From positions 154,881 through 186,880 of the forward strand of contig NZ_BLZO01000093.1 in NCBI RefSeq assembly GCF_014132355.1: a DNA stretch of 32,000 nt, in the 5' to 3' direction. The notes under the pieces are model-generated. The model had not been told where the DNA came from and searched no databases. It saw nothing but the letters and a program-made list of their open reading frames with translations. Shown in pieces: positions 351 through 7,004 of this stretch. Numbering within the stretch: the first letter of the stretch is position 1; each line of letters begins with the position of its first letter. The stretch comes from Okeania sp. KiyG1. GTDB lineage: Bacteria; Cyanobacteriota; Cyanobacteriia; Cyanobacteriales; Microcoleaceae. Both the position numbers and the translations under genes were made by a program.

Positions 351-683
351 ATGCTTAAAATAGCTATTGATGGTTTAAATGCTGTCCAATTTACAGAAGA
401 AATTCTGGCAATTGAAGGTATAGAAGGTAGTTATGAAATAGTTGGTATTGAAAGAGAAGCTGATTTAGCAACTATCGCGACAATAGTTGGAATTGGTGCA
501 GGAACTTCTGTTATGATTATTAATACTCTAAATATTGCAGAGAAGATTTCCCAGTGTTTCAAAAAACATGAGACAAAACTAGAGAAGGTAGAATTTGTTT
601 CTAAGAATGGCAACCGAGTTATACTTCACGGGGCAACTGTAGAACAAATTAAAGATATTTTGGAAAGTTTCCTGAAAAAATAA
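351..683 (+). CDS. Small protein with a central hydrophobic segment; candidate EACC1-like (effector-associated constant component) partner of the downstream CHAT-STAND gene
   Basis: 110-aa ORF whose stop (681-683) lies 2 nt before the ATG of the next gene, suggesting translational coupling. Layout: N-terminal KIAIDG strand, hydrophobic IATIVGIGAGTSVMIINTL, C-terminal KVEFVSKNGNRVILHGATVEQIKDILESFL. This resembles my recollection of EACC1 proteins; it was not searched. Confidence 0.55.
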   Translation: MLKIAIDGLNAVQFTEEILAIEGIEGSYEIVGIEREADLATIATIVGIGAGTSVMIINTLNIAEKISQCFKKHETKLEKVEFVSKNGNRVILHGATVEQIKDILESFLKK

Positions 684-685
684 CT

Positions 686-3501
686 ATGCAAATTCTTCAC
701 TTAGACTTGAAATTAATAGGGGATAATTATGCTCAATTCCGATACTTTTGGAATAATCCTAATAATTATCAAACCTCCGAGCAATTACCTCTGACAAAAA
801 TTTCTGCTCTAGTCGAAAAGTCAAACTCATACTATTACACCAGACTGCCAGAAGACCCTGACAAAACTGGTCAAATACTTTATAACTGGTTAGATGGAAA
901 TAGCCGTATTTTGCAAAGGGAAATTGATAAAAATCGACGAGAAGGAATTGTTTTAGCTATTTCTACTTCAGAAAGATTAGCTCATTTACCTTGGGAATTG
1001 CTCCATGATGGTAAAGGATTTTTAGTTAATTCTAAACCTGCCATTATTCCTGTTCGTTGGATGACGGATAGTCAACAACTTTCTTTTCAAAATCAACCTC
1101 ATAACCGAGCATTAAATGTTGTGTTTATGGCAACTTCCCCCCCGCAACATGGGAGACCATTTTTCGGAACTTGATTTTGAAGCGGAGGAGGGAAGTATTT
1201 TAGAAGCAACTAAAAGAACACCTTTGTTTTTAGAAGTAGAAGAAAGTGGTTGTTTGACTGAATTAGGTTATCTGGTGGGAAATCAGGAAGAGAATTTTTT
1301 TTGATGTTATTCATCTCACAGGTCATACAAAATTTCGGAATGATAAACCTTGCTTTGTTACTGAGACAGAATATGGAGAGGCAGAATATAGTAGTGGGGA
1401 AGATATTGCTACACAATTACAATATCGATACCCTAAACTGATTTTTCTATCCGGTTGTCGGACTGGATATGAATATGAAGAAAATATTCCGTCAATGGCA
1501 GAATCTTTATTGAGTGAACGTGTAACAGCAGTTTTAGGATGGGGCGATCGGGTTTTAGATACAGATGCAACAACAGTAGCAGCAAAATTTTATCAGGGGT
1601 TGTCTTCTGGAAAAAGAGTAACGGAAGCATTGGCGGAAACTTACCAGGAATTAATTAAAGTTAATGCTAGAGACTGGCATAAATTACGACTTTATGTGGC
1701 GGGTAGTTTACCGGGAGCGTTAGTAACTCCCTTGAGAAAACCAGGTCGGAAACCTGCACCCCGTTACAACAAAACAATTGATGAATTTAGGGATGAAGAG
1801 CGTAAATTTAGAGTAGTAAATCGTGAAAATTTTGTTGGTCGTCGCCGTCAGTTACAAAATTGTCTCCGTGCTTTTAAGTTAGATGATAAGTTGGGAATAT
1901 TAATTCATGGTATGGGAGGTTTAGGAAAAAGTACCATTGCTTCTCGACTTTGGGAACGTTTCTCGGAATATGAAACAGTCTTATGGTGGCAACAAATAGA
2001 TAGTTCTAATTTAGTACAAAAATTGGCAGATAAATTGAGGGATGCTGACCTACGTTCTAAATTACAAAATAATAAAAATGGACTTAAATATAGGTTGCGA
2101 GATTTGTTTGAAAATTTGATTGAAGCTGGAGCAAAACCTTTTCTTTTCCTCTTTGATGATTTTGAATTTAATCTCGAACCTCGTGAGGGTGGATTTGTTT
2201 TGAAACCTGAAGTGGCAGAAGTTTTAGATGCTTTGGTTTTTGCAATTCGAGAAATAGGTAGGGAAAAAATTATTATTACTTCTCGTTATGAGTTTCAATA
2301 TGATTTATTAAGTGAGTTTTGGGTACAAGGTTTAGACGCATTTCGCAAAGCTGATTTAAAGAAAAAATTGAAACGTCTGGAGAATTTTAATTCGGGAAAA
2401 ATTGATGAAAAGTTAATCGAAAGAGCCTTAAAACTTGCAGATGGAAATCCCCGTTTATTGGAATGGTTGGATAAAGATGTGCTTGCCTGTAAGAATATTG
2501 ATGCCAAACTAACTGAGCATGAATCTAGTTCTGAAGATTGGAAATGGAAAATAACTAGGTCTGAACTTTATGCACAAATTGATGAAAAAGGTATTCAGGT
2601 ATTGAGTAATTGTTTAGTGTTGGAAATTCCTGTACCGATGTTAGCTTTAGATGCGGTTTGTGAGTCTATTTCTGGTTATCAAGAAAAGTTAAATCAAGCG
2701 GTAGATTTAGGTTTAATAGAAACTGGTTCGGAAGTAGAAGAATCTGAGCGTGTTTATCGAGTTTCACGGATTGTACCTCATATTATTTCGAGTATTAAAT
2801 TGCCTGAAGTTCCTGAAGTTTATTCTTTGTATGAAAAAGGTTCGGAAAAGTTGTTTGAGTTATGGGGGAAGAAAGACAATAGAAGTGAGGAAAAATGGCG
2901 TGAGATTTTCCGGTTAAAGTTTGCCAATAAAGAAAATCCTGAGCGATTTCGAGAGGGATTTTCTCAAATGTTGTCCTGCGACTATTATAGTGCAGCTGAT
3001 TCTGCTTATAAGTCTGAACTTAAGCAAATCAAAACGGAACTAACAGAACTACTAAAGAATAATAATTTGGAAGAATATTTGTGTCAAGGTGAATGGAGAA
3101 AAGCTGATGAGCAGACAGTAGTTATTTTTTATCAAGTAATGGCATTAAGGGATATTCAAACATCTTTTATTTATGATGATAAGGAGTTTCCAATGTCAAT
3201 ACTTAAGTACATAGACCAACTTTGGATAAAATATAGTAATGGTAAGTTTGGTTTTTCCGTCCAAAAGAAAATTTATCAGAGTTTGGGTGGAAAAGGAAAA
3301 TATGACAAGGAAGTATACGAAGCATTTGGTAATGAAGTCGGATGGCGTTCAGGAGAAAAACAGTTGCATTATTCAGACCTAACTTTTAGCTTGAATACTG
3401 ATTATACTGGGCATCTCCCGTTTCAGGCATGGCAGTATTGGGAAGCGACAGAATCAATGAGGCCGAAGATAGAATTTGTTAATTTGGGTAAACTTTTATG
3501 A
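686..3501 (+). pseudogene. CHAT (caspase-like) protease - STAND P-loop NTPase (NB-ARC/NACHT-like) - GUN4 domain protein, interrupted by two +1 frameshifts
   Basis: Three collinear ORFs: 686-1174 (frame 2), 1116-1304 (frame 3), and frame 1 open from 1303 to 3501. The CHAT N-region has HLPWELLHD. Catalytic His lies in DVIHLTGH (His codon 1324-1326) and catalytic Cys in IFLSGCRTG (1456-1458). Walker A is GMGGLGKST (~1909-1935) and Walker B is LFLFDDFE. The C-terminal GUN4 signature is IDQLWIKYSNGKFGFSVQKKIY...VGW...LHYSDLTFSL...GHLP (~3088-3420). The frame changes coincide with a C7 run (1137-1143) and a T8 run (1295-1302). Removing one base from each gives a continuous ~937-aa protein (FMATSPRNMGDHFSELDFEAEE and EENFFDVIHLTGH). 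Confidence 0.8.
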
Positions 3502-3596: not shown

Positions 3597-3800
3597 ATGA
3601 ATTTAAAATTAGTTAAATCCTTAGCAGAAATAATTAACAACTTAACTCCAGAAGAAAAACAGCTTTTGGGAAAAATGATTAATTTAATTCAAGATAATAA
3701 CCAACCTGAAAATCAGTCTTGGCATGAGTTTATTGAAAACACTTATGGCAGTATTCAAGATGAAACTTTTGTCAGACATTATCAAGGTAATTTTGAGTAG
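3597..3800 (+). CDS. Small hypothetical protein, antitoxin-like C-terminal motif (function uncertain)
   Basis: 67-aa ORF with AGAGG 8 nt upstream of the ATG. The C-terminal W.EFIENTYGSIQDETFVRHYQG.FE resembles the W..F...T.GS..D..F.R..QG.YE tail I recall from small cyanobacterial antitoxin-type proteins. No toxin partner is visible. Confidence 0.4.
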   Translation: MNLKLVKSLAEIINNLTPEEKQLLGKMINLIQDNNQPENQSWHEFIENTYGSIQDETFVRHYQGNFE

Positions 3801-3947: not shown

Positions 3948-6900
3948 TTAACTATTCTCTGACAATTTCTTAGCTTTGCACAACTGCACCCAATGTTTCC
4001 AACCCATATACAAACCAAATAACAATATCGCCCAAACAAAACTAGGTTCTGGAATACCTACCATCCCATCAGGAGTCTGTTTTTTCACTTTCTCCCGACG
4101 ACTAGAACTACTAGGATCAACTCGTTGCTCGTCACTCACCGCCACAAAAGCAGTATATTTCGACATCAACCGATAACCCAAAGCGACATTTGTCACAGCT
4201 TCAACTTTTTCTGACATCTCCCCATCAGTCATTTCCAACATCAATTCCTTAATTTTGGCTCGTCCCCAAAGTTGAGCGATCGCTTCATTCCCACCATCTG
4301 AGTCGAAGCGCAAGGGAAAGGTCTTACGATATGGTTTTCCACCAGCAGCAACGGCAGTTATTTGCAAGTTTCCACTGAGTCGGTCTTGTTTACGTCCGTA
4401 CAAAATTAAAGGTTCTTGAGCAAATAAGTCTGCAGGTTTGAGTGGGAATATTTCGGGAGCTTCTCCTAAACCCTGCCAAGTTACTTCTATATTGGTCAAA
4501 ACTGGGTTATTAATTTCATTGAAAAACTTTTCTACTACCGCATCGACAGATTCATCGTGACGTACAACATGGACTGTACCCCGTCCTACTTCTGCTAGTC
4601 GGTTTAATAAAAATCGATTTACGGAGCTACCAACACCAAAACTATAGAGACGGTTTCCTGGTTGTAGTTGTTTTTGTATGCGAGAAATGATTTGATTTTC
4701 ATTGCCAATTAAACCATCTGTTACTAGGACAATACTTCGCAGTCGCCCATTTTTTGCTGGTGAAAAGTTCAGTACAGTATCAATTCCATTGAGTAATTCT
4801 GTTCCACCATTTGCCTTTAAGTTATTAACATAATCTATGGCTTTTTTCTGGTTAGCAGGAGTATTAGCTAAAGGTTGGGTTGATAATGTTTGAGCGCTAT
4901 TAGCAAAGTCAATAATTGTGAAGGTATCGTCAGGATTTAATCCCTGAAGAAAACGGCGCATTAATACTTTTGATTGTGCTAAAGGCGCACCGCTTTGGGA
5001 ACCGGATGTATCCATCAAAAATACTACATCTTTCGGTACAATTTCTTTGGTTTGATATTCCAGAGCGGGAATTAAAGAAACTGCAAAATGTCCGCCTTTA
5101 TTATCTGCTTGAGAGAGAACTGTAGATTGGGTTTCTTTGCCAGCTACTTGATAACGAAGAACTAAATCTTTATTGGGAATAGTGTCAGTTTTGTTTAATT
5201 GTACTTGAGTAATAGATGGTAATCCTGACGCAGCAATTTTTTGAATTTGGATTTGATGGGAGGGAGAGATAATATTAGAAATTGGTACTCCGGCATCAAT
5301 TTCAACTGTGACATTAATATCATGACCAGAACGTTCTTTTGGTGGAGTTTTTGCCGTTTGAGAAAGTAAGTTAGTCAGATAATTTGTGGTAGGTAAACTG
5401 GCTAAATGAATTGGTTTTTCTGGAAAACTACTTAAATTAGAATTTCCTGGATTATAACGAGGTCCGACAACCATTGGAAAGACAAATTCATAGTCACCCC
5501 CGGCAAATTTTAAAGCATCAGTGTAGCGAATTACTACCTCTATAGTTTCCCCTGGTTGAATATTAGCTAAAGACTGAGTAAAAATATTAGCTCGTTCTTG
5601 TTCCAGTAAAGCAGCAGTTTTTCCTTCTTTTTTAGCTTTATTGTAGATTTTTTTTGCTTGTTCCCGTTTTTTAATCATGCCTTTAATCACGCGATCGCCT
5701 ATACGAATTTCCATATCATCCACGGCAGATTCATCGGGAAGTGGAAATTGATAAACTGCTTCTAAAGGAGTTTTATAAGGATTAGTAAAACGTTGTACTA
5801 CTTCTACTCTCGATACATTTCCCGCAATTTTAGCTGTAACATCTGTATGTTCTAATGGAAAAGCTTGTACTGTCCCTGTGGGAGATTTTGCATATAATCC
5901 GCCAAATTCTGGAGGCGAAATAACTGGTTTTTGAGGTTCTGATTTAAGTTTTTCTGATTGAATAACAACAGGTTTTTGTCGAGGAGAACTTGAAAATATT
6001 CCTGCTAAAACTATCCCCGTTAAAAATAAGCAAGTTATACCTGCAACTCCACCAATAAATAATTTAGGAAGATTATTTTTGACTGTAGTTAATTCTGGAT
6101 AACTATTCAAATCATGTAAAATTTCCCGTGCTGTTTGATAACGATTTTTAGTCGCAGTTTTCAGCATTTTATCAAGAATTTGACTCAACTGAAGAGAAAC
6201 AGGACTTTTCAAATAATCTCGCCAAACCCAACTATCCTCACTACTATCAAATAAATCAAAAGGTGCTACTCCAGTAAGTAGATAAATACAAGTTATAGCC
6301 AAACTATAAATATCACTAGCAAAGATAGCTTTACCCCTTACTTGTTCCGGCGCAATATATGCTGCTGAACCAATTAAAGTTCCAGTTTTTGCCAAAGCAG
6401 TTTTAGAGGTAAATTTAGCTGCACCAAAATCAACTAAAACTAGAGAATTTTTTTGATTTTCATCCCGCTCGGAGTTAGCAATACGAACAATATTTTCTGG
6501 TTTAATATCTCGGTGTATTACCTGATGGCTATGAACAAACTCCAAGATAGGTAACATTTCATTCAGAAATTCTCGGATTTTAGCTTCACTGAAAACTCCC
6601 TCTGTTGCCAACTCTTCAGCTAAGTTTTGACCAGCAATATATTCTTGTACTAAATATTGATGATTATCTTGAACTAAATGAGCAAAAAGTTCTGGTATTT
6701 GTCGATGTTTGCCGAGGGTTTCTAAACGTATTGCTTCTTGTTCAAATAATTCTGTAGCCTTCTGAATACTTTTAGCATCTTGAACTGTAGAGAAAAATTG
6801 TTTAATTACACATAAAGGTTTTGAAGGTTTGAACTCATCCACAGCTTTAAAAGTTCGACCAAAACCACCCTCACCAATAATTTCTAAAGCACGATATCGT

Positions 6901-7004
6901 TCTGCCAATAATAGTTTTGAACCACATTCCTGACATAGTTCTGTTTCTGCTGAATTCTGATGTAAACAGTTAGGATTAAAACATTTACTCATGGCATTTC
7001 TCAA
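3948..7004 (-). CDS. Ser/Thr protein kinase - TM - VIT domain - von Willebrand A domain - C-terminal PEP-CTERM-like anchor
   Basis: 1018-aa ORF. The N-terminus has a zinc-ribbon-like CFNPNC...CQECGSKL. Hanks kinase motifs: GEGGFGRTF, VIHRDIKPENI, DFG, APE. TM helix: LFIGGVAGITCLFLTGIVLAGIF. VIT-like block: PLEHTDVTAKIAGNVSRVEVVQRFTNP...AVYQFPLPDESAVDDM. vWA MIDAS: VVFLMDTSGSQSG. C-terminal tail: GIPEPSFVWAILLFGLYMGWKHW..KAKK. Confidence 0.85.
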   Translation of the reverse strand: MRNAMSKCFNPNCLHQNSAETELCQECGSKLLLAERYRALEIIGEGGFGRTFKAVDEFKPSKPLCVIKQFFSTVQDAKSIQKATELFEQEAIRLETLGKHRQIPELFAHLVQDNHQYLVQEYIAGQNLAEELATEGVFSEAKIREFLNEMLPILEFVHSHQVIHRDIKPENIVRIANSERDENQKNSLVLVDFGAAKFTSKTALAKTGTLIGSAAYIAPEQVRGKAIFASDIYSLAITCIYLLTGVAPFDLFDSSEDSWVWRDYLKSPVSLQLSQILDKMLKTATKNRYQTAREILHDLNSYPELTTVKNNLPKLFIGGVAGITCLFLTGIVLAGIFSSSPRQKPVVIQSEKLKSEPQKPVISPPEFGGLYAKSPTGTVQAFPLEHTDVTAKIAGNVSRVEVVQRFTNPYKTPLEAVYQFPLPDESAVDDMEIRIGDRVIKGMIKKREQAKKIYNKAKKEGKTAALLEQERANIFTQSLANIQPGETIEVVIRYTDALKFAGGDYEFVFPMVVGPRYNPGNSNLSSFPEKPIHLASLPTTNYLTNLLSQTAKTPPKERSGHDINVTVEIDAGVPISNIISPSHQIQIQKIAASGLPSITQVQLNKTDTIPNKDLVLRYQVAGKETQSTVLSQADNKGGHFAVSLIPALEYQTKEIVPKDVVFLMDTSGSQSGAPLAQSKVLMRRFLQGLNPDDTFTIIDFANSAQTLSTQPLANTPANQKKAIDYVNNLKANGGTELLNGIDTVLNFSPAKNGRLRSIVLVTDGLIGNENQIISRIQKQLQPGNRLYSFGVGSSVNRFLLNRLAEVGRGTVHVVRHDESVDAVVEKFFNEINNPVLTNIEVTWQGLGEAPEIFPLKPADLFAQEPLILYGRKQDRLSGNLQITAVAAGGKPYRKTFPLRFDSDGGNEAIAQLWGRAKIKELMLEMTDGEMSEKVEAVTNVALGYRLMSKYTAFVAVSDEQRVDPSSSSRREKVKKQTPDGMVGIPEPSFVWAILLFGLYMGWKHWVQLCKAKKLSENS

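Follow-up and report, generated by a model that had tools for sequence, protein, structure and literature searches.

A small EACC1-like gene and a CHAT-STAND-GUN4 gene in Okeania sp. KiyG1 as a candidate two-gene cell-suicide module

The closest described counterparts of the locus treated here are the EACC1-caspase two-gene systems, which were defined as 'System 4' by Kaur, Burroughs, Iyer and Aravind (2020; PMC7159879). In these systems the part after the caspase varies, with as many as 50 alternative domains that include STAND NTPases and repeats, and EACC1 itself was described as a transmembrane helix with a glycine patch and short alpha+beta flanks, for which a role as membrane sensor was proposed (PMC7159879). 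The same work noted that cyanobacterial GUN4 domains occur fused to kinases, caspases, trypsin and TIR, and suggested that they report tetrapyrrole status (PMC7159879). Later, the EACC1 of Ktedonobacter racemifer was reported to be cleaved by the neighbouring caspase-Avs12, putatively at Asp49 (Evans et al., 2025; bioRxiv 10.1101/2025.11.14.688446). Toxicity is confined to the C-terminal fragment, cleaved EACC1 permeabilises liposomes, and KrAvs12, the partner of EACC1, senses a phage protein (bioRxiv 10.1101/2025.11.14.688446). The present locus lies at positions 351-3501 of the window, which is the whole stretch of 32,000 nucleotides (nt) analysed, from contig NZ_BLZO01000093.1 of Okeania sp. 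KiyG1 (GCF_014132355.1); all coordinates are those of the window. It consists of a small EACC1-like gene followed by a gene for a CHAT-STAND-GUN4 protein, and the reading favoured here, with modest confidence, is that the two genes form an NTP-dependent cell-suicide (abortive-infection-type) module of the EACC1/caspase kind. In view of the preprint of Evans et al. and the GUN4 proposal of Kaur et al. (2020), the class is a characterised one and the inference of tetrapyrrole sensing is not new; an initial annotation of this DNA, which had called such systems largely uncharacterised experimentally, is outdated on this point, as cleavage of EACC1 to a pore-former has been shown (bioRxiv 10.1101/2025.11.14.688446).

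The Okeania locus has in common with EACC1-KrAvs12 and System 4 a gene of about 110 amino acids (aa) placed 5′ of a gene for a caspase-superfamily protease with a STAND module and a variable C-terminus, a small protein with a hydrophobic segment, glycine patch and alpha+beta flanks, and an enrichment in filamentous or multicellular bacteria. It differs in that the small protein falls below the Pfam threshold for EACC1, in that the C-terminus is a GUN4 domain and not a phage-protein-binding Avs sensor or repeats, and in that, relative to Asp49 of Ktedonobacter EACC1, the putative cleavage loop is shifted by about 10 residues towards the N-terminus. With Avs3, SAVED-CHAT and Csx29/Craspase it shares the predicted CHAT or STAND structure and would also share the principle of a sensor-driven assembly which switches on a protease for a dedicated substrate. 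However, unlike systems of the CRISPR type or the cyclic-oligonucleotide-based antiphage signalling (CBASS) type, the module has no cyclic-nucleotide or CRISPR component, and instead of Csx30 or a sigma-factor regulator its putative substrate would be a small protein active on membranes. An autoinhibited pore-former beside the caspase-like protease that releases it would also resemble the bacterial gasdermin-protease pairs, although fold and size are unrelated, the unit here being a ferredoxin-like alpha+beta protein of about 110 aa.

Architecture and pairing of the two genes

The small gene (351-683, + strand) is intact and codes for a protein of 110 aa, a proposed latent pore-forming effector, which is 100% identical to a protein of this strain annotated as hypothetical by NCBI. 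Its stop codon is separated by 2 nt from the ATG of the large gene at position 686. The large gene (686-3501, + strand) carries two +1 frameshifts in the assembly and is spread over three frames (686-1174, 1116-1304 and 1267/1495-3501), and its NCBI annotation covers just a 730-aa C-terminal piece, named 'GUN4 domain-containing protein'. Removal of one C from a run of seven and one T from a run of eight gives a stop-free open reading frame (ORF) of 937 aa, and it is to this repaired protein that the Pfam scan and the residue numbers of the large protein refer. Scans for promoters, terminators and inverted repeats around the operon returned nothing above chance.

The N-terminal part of the repaired protein is a CHAT caspase-like protease domain (residues 60-328, 863-1671, + strand; Pfam PF12770, 67 bits against a cut-off of 24, E 2.5e-18), the catalytic dyad of which is formed by His213 (codon at 1324-1326) and Cys257 (codon at 1456-1458). 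It is followed by a STAND NTPase module (residues ~381-600, 1828-2487, + strand) with Walker A and B motifs, where both AAA_16 (residues 381-493, 39.2 bits, cut-off 32.6) and NB-ARC (30.4 bits, cut-off 23.5) score over their cut-offs. The P-loop reads GMGGLGKS (G408-S415, 1909-1932, + strand), and in an alignment of 25 sequences its pattern GxGGxGKS, the Walker B pair D490/D491, His213 and Cys257 are all invariant. Between NTPase and GUN4 domain lies a helical region (2488-3060, + strand), taken as the winged-helix/helical arm of the STAND core, which is shared with paralogues bearing tetratricopeptide repeats (TPR) to about residue 750. In the AlphaFold2 (AF2) model of the full-length protein, with a predicted local distance difference test (pLDDT) score of 70.8, residues 570-790 are mostly helical at pLDDT 65-94. 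Foldseek matched the CHAT side to SAVED-CHAT (8tl0), Csx29/Craspase (8eey, 7zoq), separase and caspases, and the NTPase side to the STAND-TPR protein 6mfv, Avs3 (8dgc), SAMD9 and an NLR. The CHAT domain with its His/Cys dyad and the P-loop STAND module, both read from the letters alone in the initial annotation, are therefore confirmed by the Pfam domains and the invariant residues as well as by Foldseek, and with the ORF coordinates and the 2-nt gap the two-gene layout and domain order at 351-3501 hold too.

A search of 5.8 billion proteins gave 1415 clusters at E≤1e-10, and among the best 120 of these, 118 combine CHAT, AAA_16/NB-ARC and GUN4 within 913-1083 aa. Okeania, Dapis, Nostoc, Microcystis, Tolypothrix, Kamptonema and Lyngbya are among the carriers, and most relatives bear the name 'CHAT domain-containing protein' or 'GUN4 domain-containing protein'. 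When one genome per GTDB species was scanned, 264 relatives were obtained, Trichodesmium erythraeum IMS101 included, and the module was found to be enriched in filamentous, differentiating cyanobacteria. Two relatives of 1427-1463 aa (P0097, P0111) have an extra ATPase region of the FtsK/TraG/DUF87 type (PF10412, PF01935, PF02534, PF12696), which recalls the EccC-like fusions reported for EACC1-protease modules; P0111 is probably located on one contig with the small-family member P0353, as the contigs of both have a length of 5763 bp.

The best 80 of the 264 relatives were used for an analysis of their loci with local profiles. Forty have the GUN4 end, and 39 possess the CHAT-STAND core with no GUN4 end, this core being shared at 48-52% identity to about residue 750. 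Ten of these non-GUN4 sisters were read, and nine have long TPR_12-type arrays, the tenth (L088) being a short form of 800 aa with no repeats. As the TPR arrays of the sister proteins come after the shared core, the GUN4 domain sits where a repeat sensor sits, and its placement at the STAND sensor position in the initial annotation is upheld. Of the assessable loci, 32 of 38 with GUN4 and 33 of 39 with TPR (65/77) have the small gene directly upstream on the same strand, which makes it a conserved, if not invariable, partner. In the GUN4 group the two genes are in most cases 3-11 nt apart, and in the TPR group mostly 60-90 nt (to ~220 nt). The inspected loci without this pairing include one close to a transposase-like ORF, several where the upstream gene is unrelated, and some at the edge of a contig. 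The pairing also extends to the actinobacterium Luedemannella helvata, where a 119-aa member precedes, with a gap of 2 nt, a CHAT-AAA_16-TPR protein of 1490 aa. In three further contigs a related small gene is followed by a large AAA_16/NACHT-TPR protein, with no CHAT match listed for the one that was scanned. There is thus direct support for the identity of the domains, for the catalytic and NTP-binding residues, for the conserved tight pairing and for the alternation of GUN4 with TPR.

The small protein compared with EACC1

The family of the small protein amounts to 47 clusters by single-sequence search and to 204 representatives (50% identity) by profile search at E≤1e-3. The AF2 model of the Okeania protein (pLDDT 83) has the order beta1-alpha1-beta2, loop, hydrophobic glycine-rich segment, alpha2, beta4-beta5 and alpha3, with the N-terminal and C-terminal strands modelled in one compact alpha+beta (ferredoxin-like) fold. 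The model has no significant match in the PDB, and its compact fold may be comparable to the autoinhibited EACC1 monomer of Evans et al. Residues 33-41 (IEREADLAT, 447-473, + strand) form an acidic/basic loop of low confidence (pLDDT ~59-62), which according to the family alignment contains a conserved basic residue (R/K); by analogy to the Asp49 site of K. racemifer EACC1, this loop is a putative protease cleavage region. It runs into a hydrophobic segment with a patch of small residues (LATIATIVGIGAGTSVMIINTLNIAE, 465-542, + strand), drawn as a low-confidence strand in the monomer model. Within the stretch LATIATIVGIGAG of this segment, residues T41, I42, I45 and G51 are invariant in the family alignment and A43, T44, G47 and I48 are nearly so.

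The description of EACC1 applies to this protein in its length of about 110 aa, its central hydrophobic segment with a Gly patch and its alpha+beta flanks, and the gene context also agrees, the gene lying 5′ of and co-directional with a caspase-superfamily gene with a variable C-terminus. The Pfam model of EACC1 (PF19953) is a profile of 107 positions with a gathering score of 23.6 bits, and neither the product of 351-683 nor the family consensus sequences match it even at E≤10. EACC1 is, however, the Pfam family that recurs in a broad scan of the relatives, with 6/76 small-family members found at E≤0.01 (best E 3.4e-4), all sub-threshold. For two members examined at E≤1, the alignments of P0295 (13.3 bits, residues 10-99 on profile positions 7-90) and P0250 (13.7 bits, residues 39-105 on positions 38-104) are collinear and nearly full-length, and both remain below 23.6 bits. 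Pfam and NCBIfam scans of the small ORF, two consensus sequences and 20 relatives likewise gave nothing at the EACC1 threshold, and the small protein is not recognised by NCBIfam or PADLOC models. A database search with the 76-sequence profile returned no protein with a precomputed EACC1 annotation, and no match was obtained by tblastn of an actinobacterial-type relative against plasmids. The designation 'EACC1-like' given in the initial annotation therefore stands as to size, topology and gene context and falls short at the Pfam profile threshold. Our reading, from the description and the weak profile matches, is that the family is a divergent sister family of EACC1, which probably works in the same way by analogy. 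Pfam EACC1 thus overlooks a large family of small partner genes, which occurs in cyanobacteria but extends to actinobacteria.

GUN4 domain and state of the KiyG1 copy

The C-terminal domain (residues 792-918, 3061-3441, + strand), proposed in the initial annotation to be GUN4, is found by Pfam PF05419 with 100.2 bits against a cut-off of 29.2 (E 1.4e-28). The domain contains the GUN4 signature (IDQLWIKYSNGKFGFSVQKKIY...GHLP), which aligns with GUN4 domains of known structure, the sequence matches being PDB 7e2r (Arabidopsis), 4ykb (Chlamydomonas), 1z3x (Thermosynechococcus) and 1y6i (Synechocystis). The alignment covers residues 98-209 of Synechocystis Gun4 and ends at GHLP-L209, which corresponds to F912, the pairing of residues past F912 being a gap-free extension of it. 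In the window protein GHLP is followed by FQAWQY (3409-3438, + strand), which replaces the canonical LxNxLR porphyrin/bilin motif, so that Asn211 of Synechocystis Gun4 corresponds to Ala914, Leu213 to Gln916, Arg214 to Tyr917 and Arg217 to Ala920. Compared with Synechocystis Sll0558 (1Y6I, 4XKB), a Mg-chelatase cofactor, the domain has the same core fold and signature to GHLP, but LxNxLR and the canonical N-terminal helical bundle are missing and it is fused to a protease-NTPase. The tail from residue 894 is the least confident part of the model (pLDDT <50).

Arg214 was described as 'absolutely essential' for the binding of both porphyrins by Synechocystis Gun4, which is abolished by Ala and Glu substitutions, and a Synechocystis paralogue with Tyr at this position was considered a probably poor binder of protoporphyrin (Proto) and Mg-Proto (Verdecia et al., PMC1084334). 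The LxNxLR motif is kept in orthologues and lost in paralogues, and Asn211 is essential for bilin (Rockwell et al., PMC10156173). The window domain groups with these 'paralogue' GUN4s. Asn is found at the Asn211 position in 0/43 family tails and Arg at the Arg214 position in ~11/43, none of them in the Okeania/Trichodesmium clade, where Tyr (window, one Trichodesmium MAG, i.e., metagenome-assembled genome) or else His, Phe, Gly and others occur; several members skipped by the motif search also show an LPxLIYTR pattern. Judged from its sequence, the fold is GUN4 of the paralogue type, the ligand of which is not to be assumed a porphyrin, and with Asn211, Arg214 and Arg217 replaced by Ala, Tyr and Ala, porphyrin sensing is unsupported. 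The label GUN4 on such fusions should hence not be taken to mean 'binds Mg-protoporphyrin'. The sole PADLOC match of the large protein is also to this domain, namely positions 299-428 of PDLC04062, a model of the kinase defence-candidate PD-T4-6 (E 7.7e-28), and the PD-T4-6 set of PADLOC therefore includes paralogue-type kinase-GUN4 fusions. Many CHAT-STAND-GUN4 proteins from outside Okeania (alignment A2, L018-L044) have a conserved tail, [LF][LF]SRx[DE]L or ...SRA[EK]TC[KR]V, with a Cys three residues from the end, which is absent in the window copy.

Both +1 frameshifts of the large gene lie inside the CHAT domain, at codons ~152 and ~205, and interrupt its reading frame. DNA alignment with L005, L006 and L009 places the first in a C7 run (1137-1143, + strand), where orthologues have C6 or TC5, and the second in a T8 run (1295-1302, + strand), where orthologues have T7. 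Intact orthologues with C6 (or TC5) and T7 at the two sites are present in Okeania sp. SIO2C9, in O. hirsuta and in a Logan contig, and the repaired protein is collinear with the intact orthologues and gap-free over both junctions. The three frame pieces cover the family CHAT profile contiguously (positions 1-153, 151-201 and 198-341), so nothing has been deleted; with two +1 homopolymer frameshifts in the protease gene, the copy is nevertheless inactive as written in the assembly. Among the 113 homopolymer runs of at least 6 bases in the window, a one-base correction lengthens an ORF at these two, one further case being trivial in that the correction merely joins two adjacent genes; no other homopolymer-linked ORF break was found across the window. 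Programmed ribosomal frameshifting or phase variation at C7 and T8 was set aside, because the orthologues are in frame with C6/T7 and two +1 events would need to be bypassed. The gene is not dead in all related strains, intact orthologues being present in Okeania, Dapis and T. erythraeum IMS101, the last of which (L014) has an intact orthologous pair. In Okeania sp. SIO2C9 (L005:4560-5010) the protease gene is intact, and the small gene has its 5′ half replaced by unrelated sequence and carries an early stop. The window shows the opposite state, with a frameshifted protease gene behind an intact small gene.

The module is more divergent than its surroundings. Against Okeania genomes its synonymous divergence (dS) is 0.27-0.29 and its nonsynonymous divergence (dN) 0.13-0.14 (dN/dS ~0.5), compared with a dS of 0.08-0.11, a dN of 0.006-0.016 and a dN/dS of 0.06-0.21 for four syntenic flanking genes in the same genomes; in the GUN4 region dN/dS reaches 0.6-0.8. 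The CHAT-STAND part is nearest to contig L009 (dS 0.18), from which the GUN4 region (3061-3501) differs at a dS of 0.72, the nearest relative of the latter being a Trichodesmium MAG, L010 (dS 0.25). The gene is mosaic, which suggests that recombination has exchanged the C-terminal region. Conflict systems typically evolve fast and in mosaic fashion and are lost sporadically, and the divergence pattern, which looks defence-like, was counted in favour of a cell-suicide module.

Proposed function and genomic setting

In the mechanism envisaged for the module, the large protein would be kept inactive as a monomer until its C-terminal GUN4-type domain, at the position of the TPR array of the sisters, receives a signal. 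This would free the STAND NTPase for oligomerisation, by which the N-terminal CHAT protease domains would be gathered and activated. The protease would then cut the co-transcribed 110-aa protein in the loop just ahead of the glycine-rich hydrophobic segment, and the freed C-terminal fragment would form a membrane pore and kill the cell. Oligomerisation, cleavage and pore formation are here inferred from the characterised EACC1-Avs12 system of Ktedonobacter. Several results weigh against such a module in KiyG1, namely the interrupted protease frame, the sub-threshold or absent EACC1 matches of the small protein and its lack of recognition by NCBIfam and PADLOC, and the replacement of Asn211 and Arg214 in the GUN4 domain. 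To these are added that the PADLOC Avs profiles have no match to the large protein, that no relatives of either gene were found among IMG/VR viral contigs, and that the gene context within the window shows no phage-related link and no obvious defence island, consisting of a ptx/phn-like transport cluster, kinases, a methyltransferase and an Hsp70-like gene. If active, the module would be a cyanobacterial example of immunity in which a protease licenses a pore-former, its sensor having been taken over from the regulation of chlorophyll synthesis.

The protease gene could well be truly frameshifted and the KiyG1 locus a functionless decaying remnant, in which the small gene persists merely because it is harmless without its activator; we treat this tentatively, as a serious possibility. 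In favour of decay are the two independent +1 frameshifts within 160 bp and their isolation, both in being the only homopolymer-linked ORF breaks among the 113 runs and in having unbroken syntenic neighbours (the kinase-VIT-VWA gene, the methyltransferase, the ABC ATPase and the PhnD-like gene). Loss of one partner is seen elsewhere, as in the 5′-truncated small gene of SIO2C9, and L045 retains a short C-terminal CHAT fragment ahead of its STAND region, with split domains also occurring at several other loci, including MAG loci. Set against this is the origin of the sequence, which was assembled with Flye from GridION Nanopore (R9) reads of multiple-displacement-amplified single cells and polished using Pilon with MiSeq reads amounting to ~116-145 Mbp per cell, the genome being 11 Mb in size (PMC7660993). 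With such low and uneven Illumina coverage at polishing, residual homopolymer errors are expected and may cluster in unpolished patches. Beyond the two sites there are also no stops, and the repaired protein departs from just 3/185 columns invariant in the other 24 sequences, compared with 1-11 in intact orthologues. The frameshifts may thus be two local unpolished Nanopore errors or a very recent inactivation. The KiyG1 copy is unfit for experiments before its homopolymers are checked, the intact orthologues of T. erythraeum IMS101 and Nostoc punctiforme being better suited. Many examples of the architecture exist in databases, and the literature had foreseen it; the KiyG1 copy is possibly broken in this assembly. 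The useful outcomes are the revised view of GUN4, the large EACC1-like family missed by Pfam and the identification of intact orthologues.

As to the trigger of a cell-suicide module, tetrapyrrole sensing is just one possibility among others, because the GUN4 domain does not have the canonical porphyrin/bilin residues. According to this explanation, also given in the initial annotation, the domain binds protoporphyrin IX, Mg-protoporphyrin IX or another tetrapyrrole and the protease switch kills when intermediates accumulate, be it by photo-oxidative stress or by interference of a phage or toxin with chlorophyll synthesis. The strong fold match at the sensor position, which is the part of the idea that stood, the conserved core W846...FGFSVQ...W886, which corresponds to parts of the hydrophobic 'palm' (PMC1084334), the Arg kept in 11/43 of the members scored, with LPxLIYTR in several others, and the same role proposed for GUN4 fusions by Kaur et al. 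(2020; PMC7159879), which makes the idea a published one, all speak in its favour. We nevertheless consider it unlikely, given that Arg214, where substitutions abolish porphyrin binding, is replaced throughout the Okeania/Trichodesmium clade, that Asn211 is kept in no tail and Arg217 is Ala in the window, that the Tyr-bearing paralogue was argued to be probably inefficient for Proto and Mg-Proto (PMC1084334), and that the motif segment is modelled at pLDDT <50. A metabolic sensor of the paralogue type could still detect a tetrapyrrole, a bilin breakdown product or another pigment metabolite via a non-canonical pocket, which is highly doubtful; if true, a derangement of the pigment pathway (high light, iron stress, cyanophage takeover) would directly license the protease and its pore-former, and the bloom and mat formers such as Trichodesmium and Okeania would gain a defined route from photo-oxidative stress to programmed cell death. 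The loss of ligand-binding residues in a kept fold is in line with a protein-recognition or decoy module, as opposed to a small-molecule sensor, which triggers the STAND NTPase in the manner of an Avs or NLR integrated decoy, its target being a partner such as the Mg-chelatase H subunit or a phage protein aimed at the host GUN4. Immune sensor surfaces are often mosaic and fast-evolving, as is the GUN4 region with its own nearest relative and its dN/dS of up to 0.6-0.8, and the same paralogue-type GUN4 is found on kinases in the PD-T4-6 model. Canonical GUN4 moreover binds ChlH (PMC2757182, PMC10156173) and KrAvs12 senses a phage protein (bioRxiv 10.1101/2025.11.14.688446). The IMG/VR scans gave no phage context, though, and high divergence is equally explicable by relaxed constraint, and a decoy too we hold to be improbable. 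The concrete question raised is what the many cyanobacterial GUN4 paralogues fused to caspases, kinases and TIR sense, which is relevant to cell death in Trichodesmium and other bloom-formers. Finally, the small protein may be a membrane anchor or sensor which activates the protease, as in the original model of 2020 (PMC7159879), and not a death effector, with the protease directed at different substrates and serving, for instance, developmental or regulatory proteolysis in the way of the CHAT protein HetF. A weak NCBIfam match of the CHAT region to HetF and the enrichment of the module in filamentous, differentiating cyanobacteria would suit this, but the match has 25 bits against a cut-off of 1200, bona fide EACC1 is a cleaved toxic component (bioRxiv 10.1101/2025.11.14.688446), and the tight pairing and rapid co-divergence suit a protease and its substrate, all of which makes an anchor very unlikely.

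Downstream of the module lies a 67-aa ORF (3597-3800, + strand), which matches no family and is conserved with 88% identity in Okeania sp. SIO2C9, where its distance from the large gene is different. Two large Ser/Thr kinase fusions are encoded on the opposite strand, Pkinase-VIT-VWA (3948-7004, - strand) and Pkinase-FGE-sulfatase (21016-23184, - strand). The former is 98.6% identical to its SIO2C9 orthologue, compared with 76-80% for the neighbouring CHAT gene, and the architecture of the latter is typical of targets of diversity-generating retroelements in cyanobacteria. At 10369-16126 (+ strand) genes for an ABC ATPase, a PhnD-like phosphonate-binding protein, a permease and a D-2-hydroxyacid dehydrogenase stand in a row, and these look like a ptxABCD-like cluster for phosphite/phosphonate uptake and oxidation. 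The 318-aa ORF at 16263-17219 (- strand) has solely a NACHT/NB-ARC/AAA_22 module, with neither effector nor sensor domain, and possibly represents a truncated STAND gene. Fusions of EACC1-protease modules to DnaK-like domains have been reported (Evans et al., bioRxiv 10.1101/2025.11.14.688446); no EACC1-like or CHAT profile match was found near the window gene for a 530-aa HSP70/MreB-like protein, which lies at 24248-25840 (+ strand).

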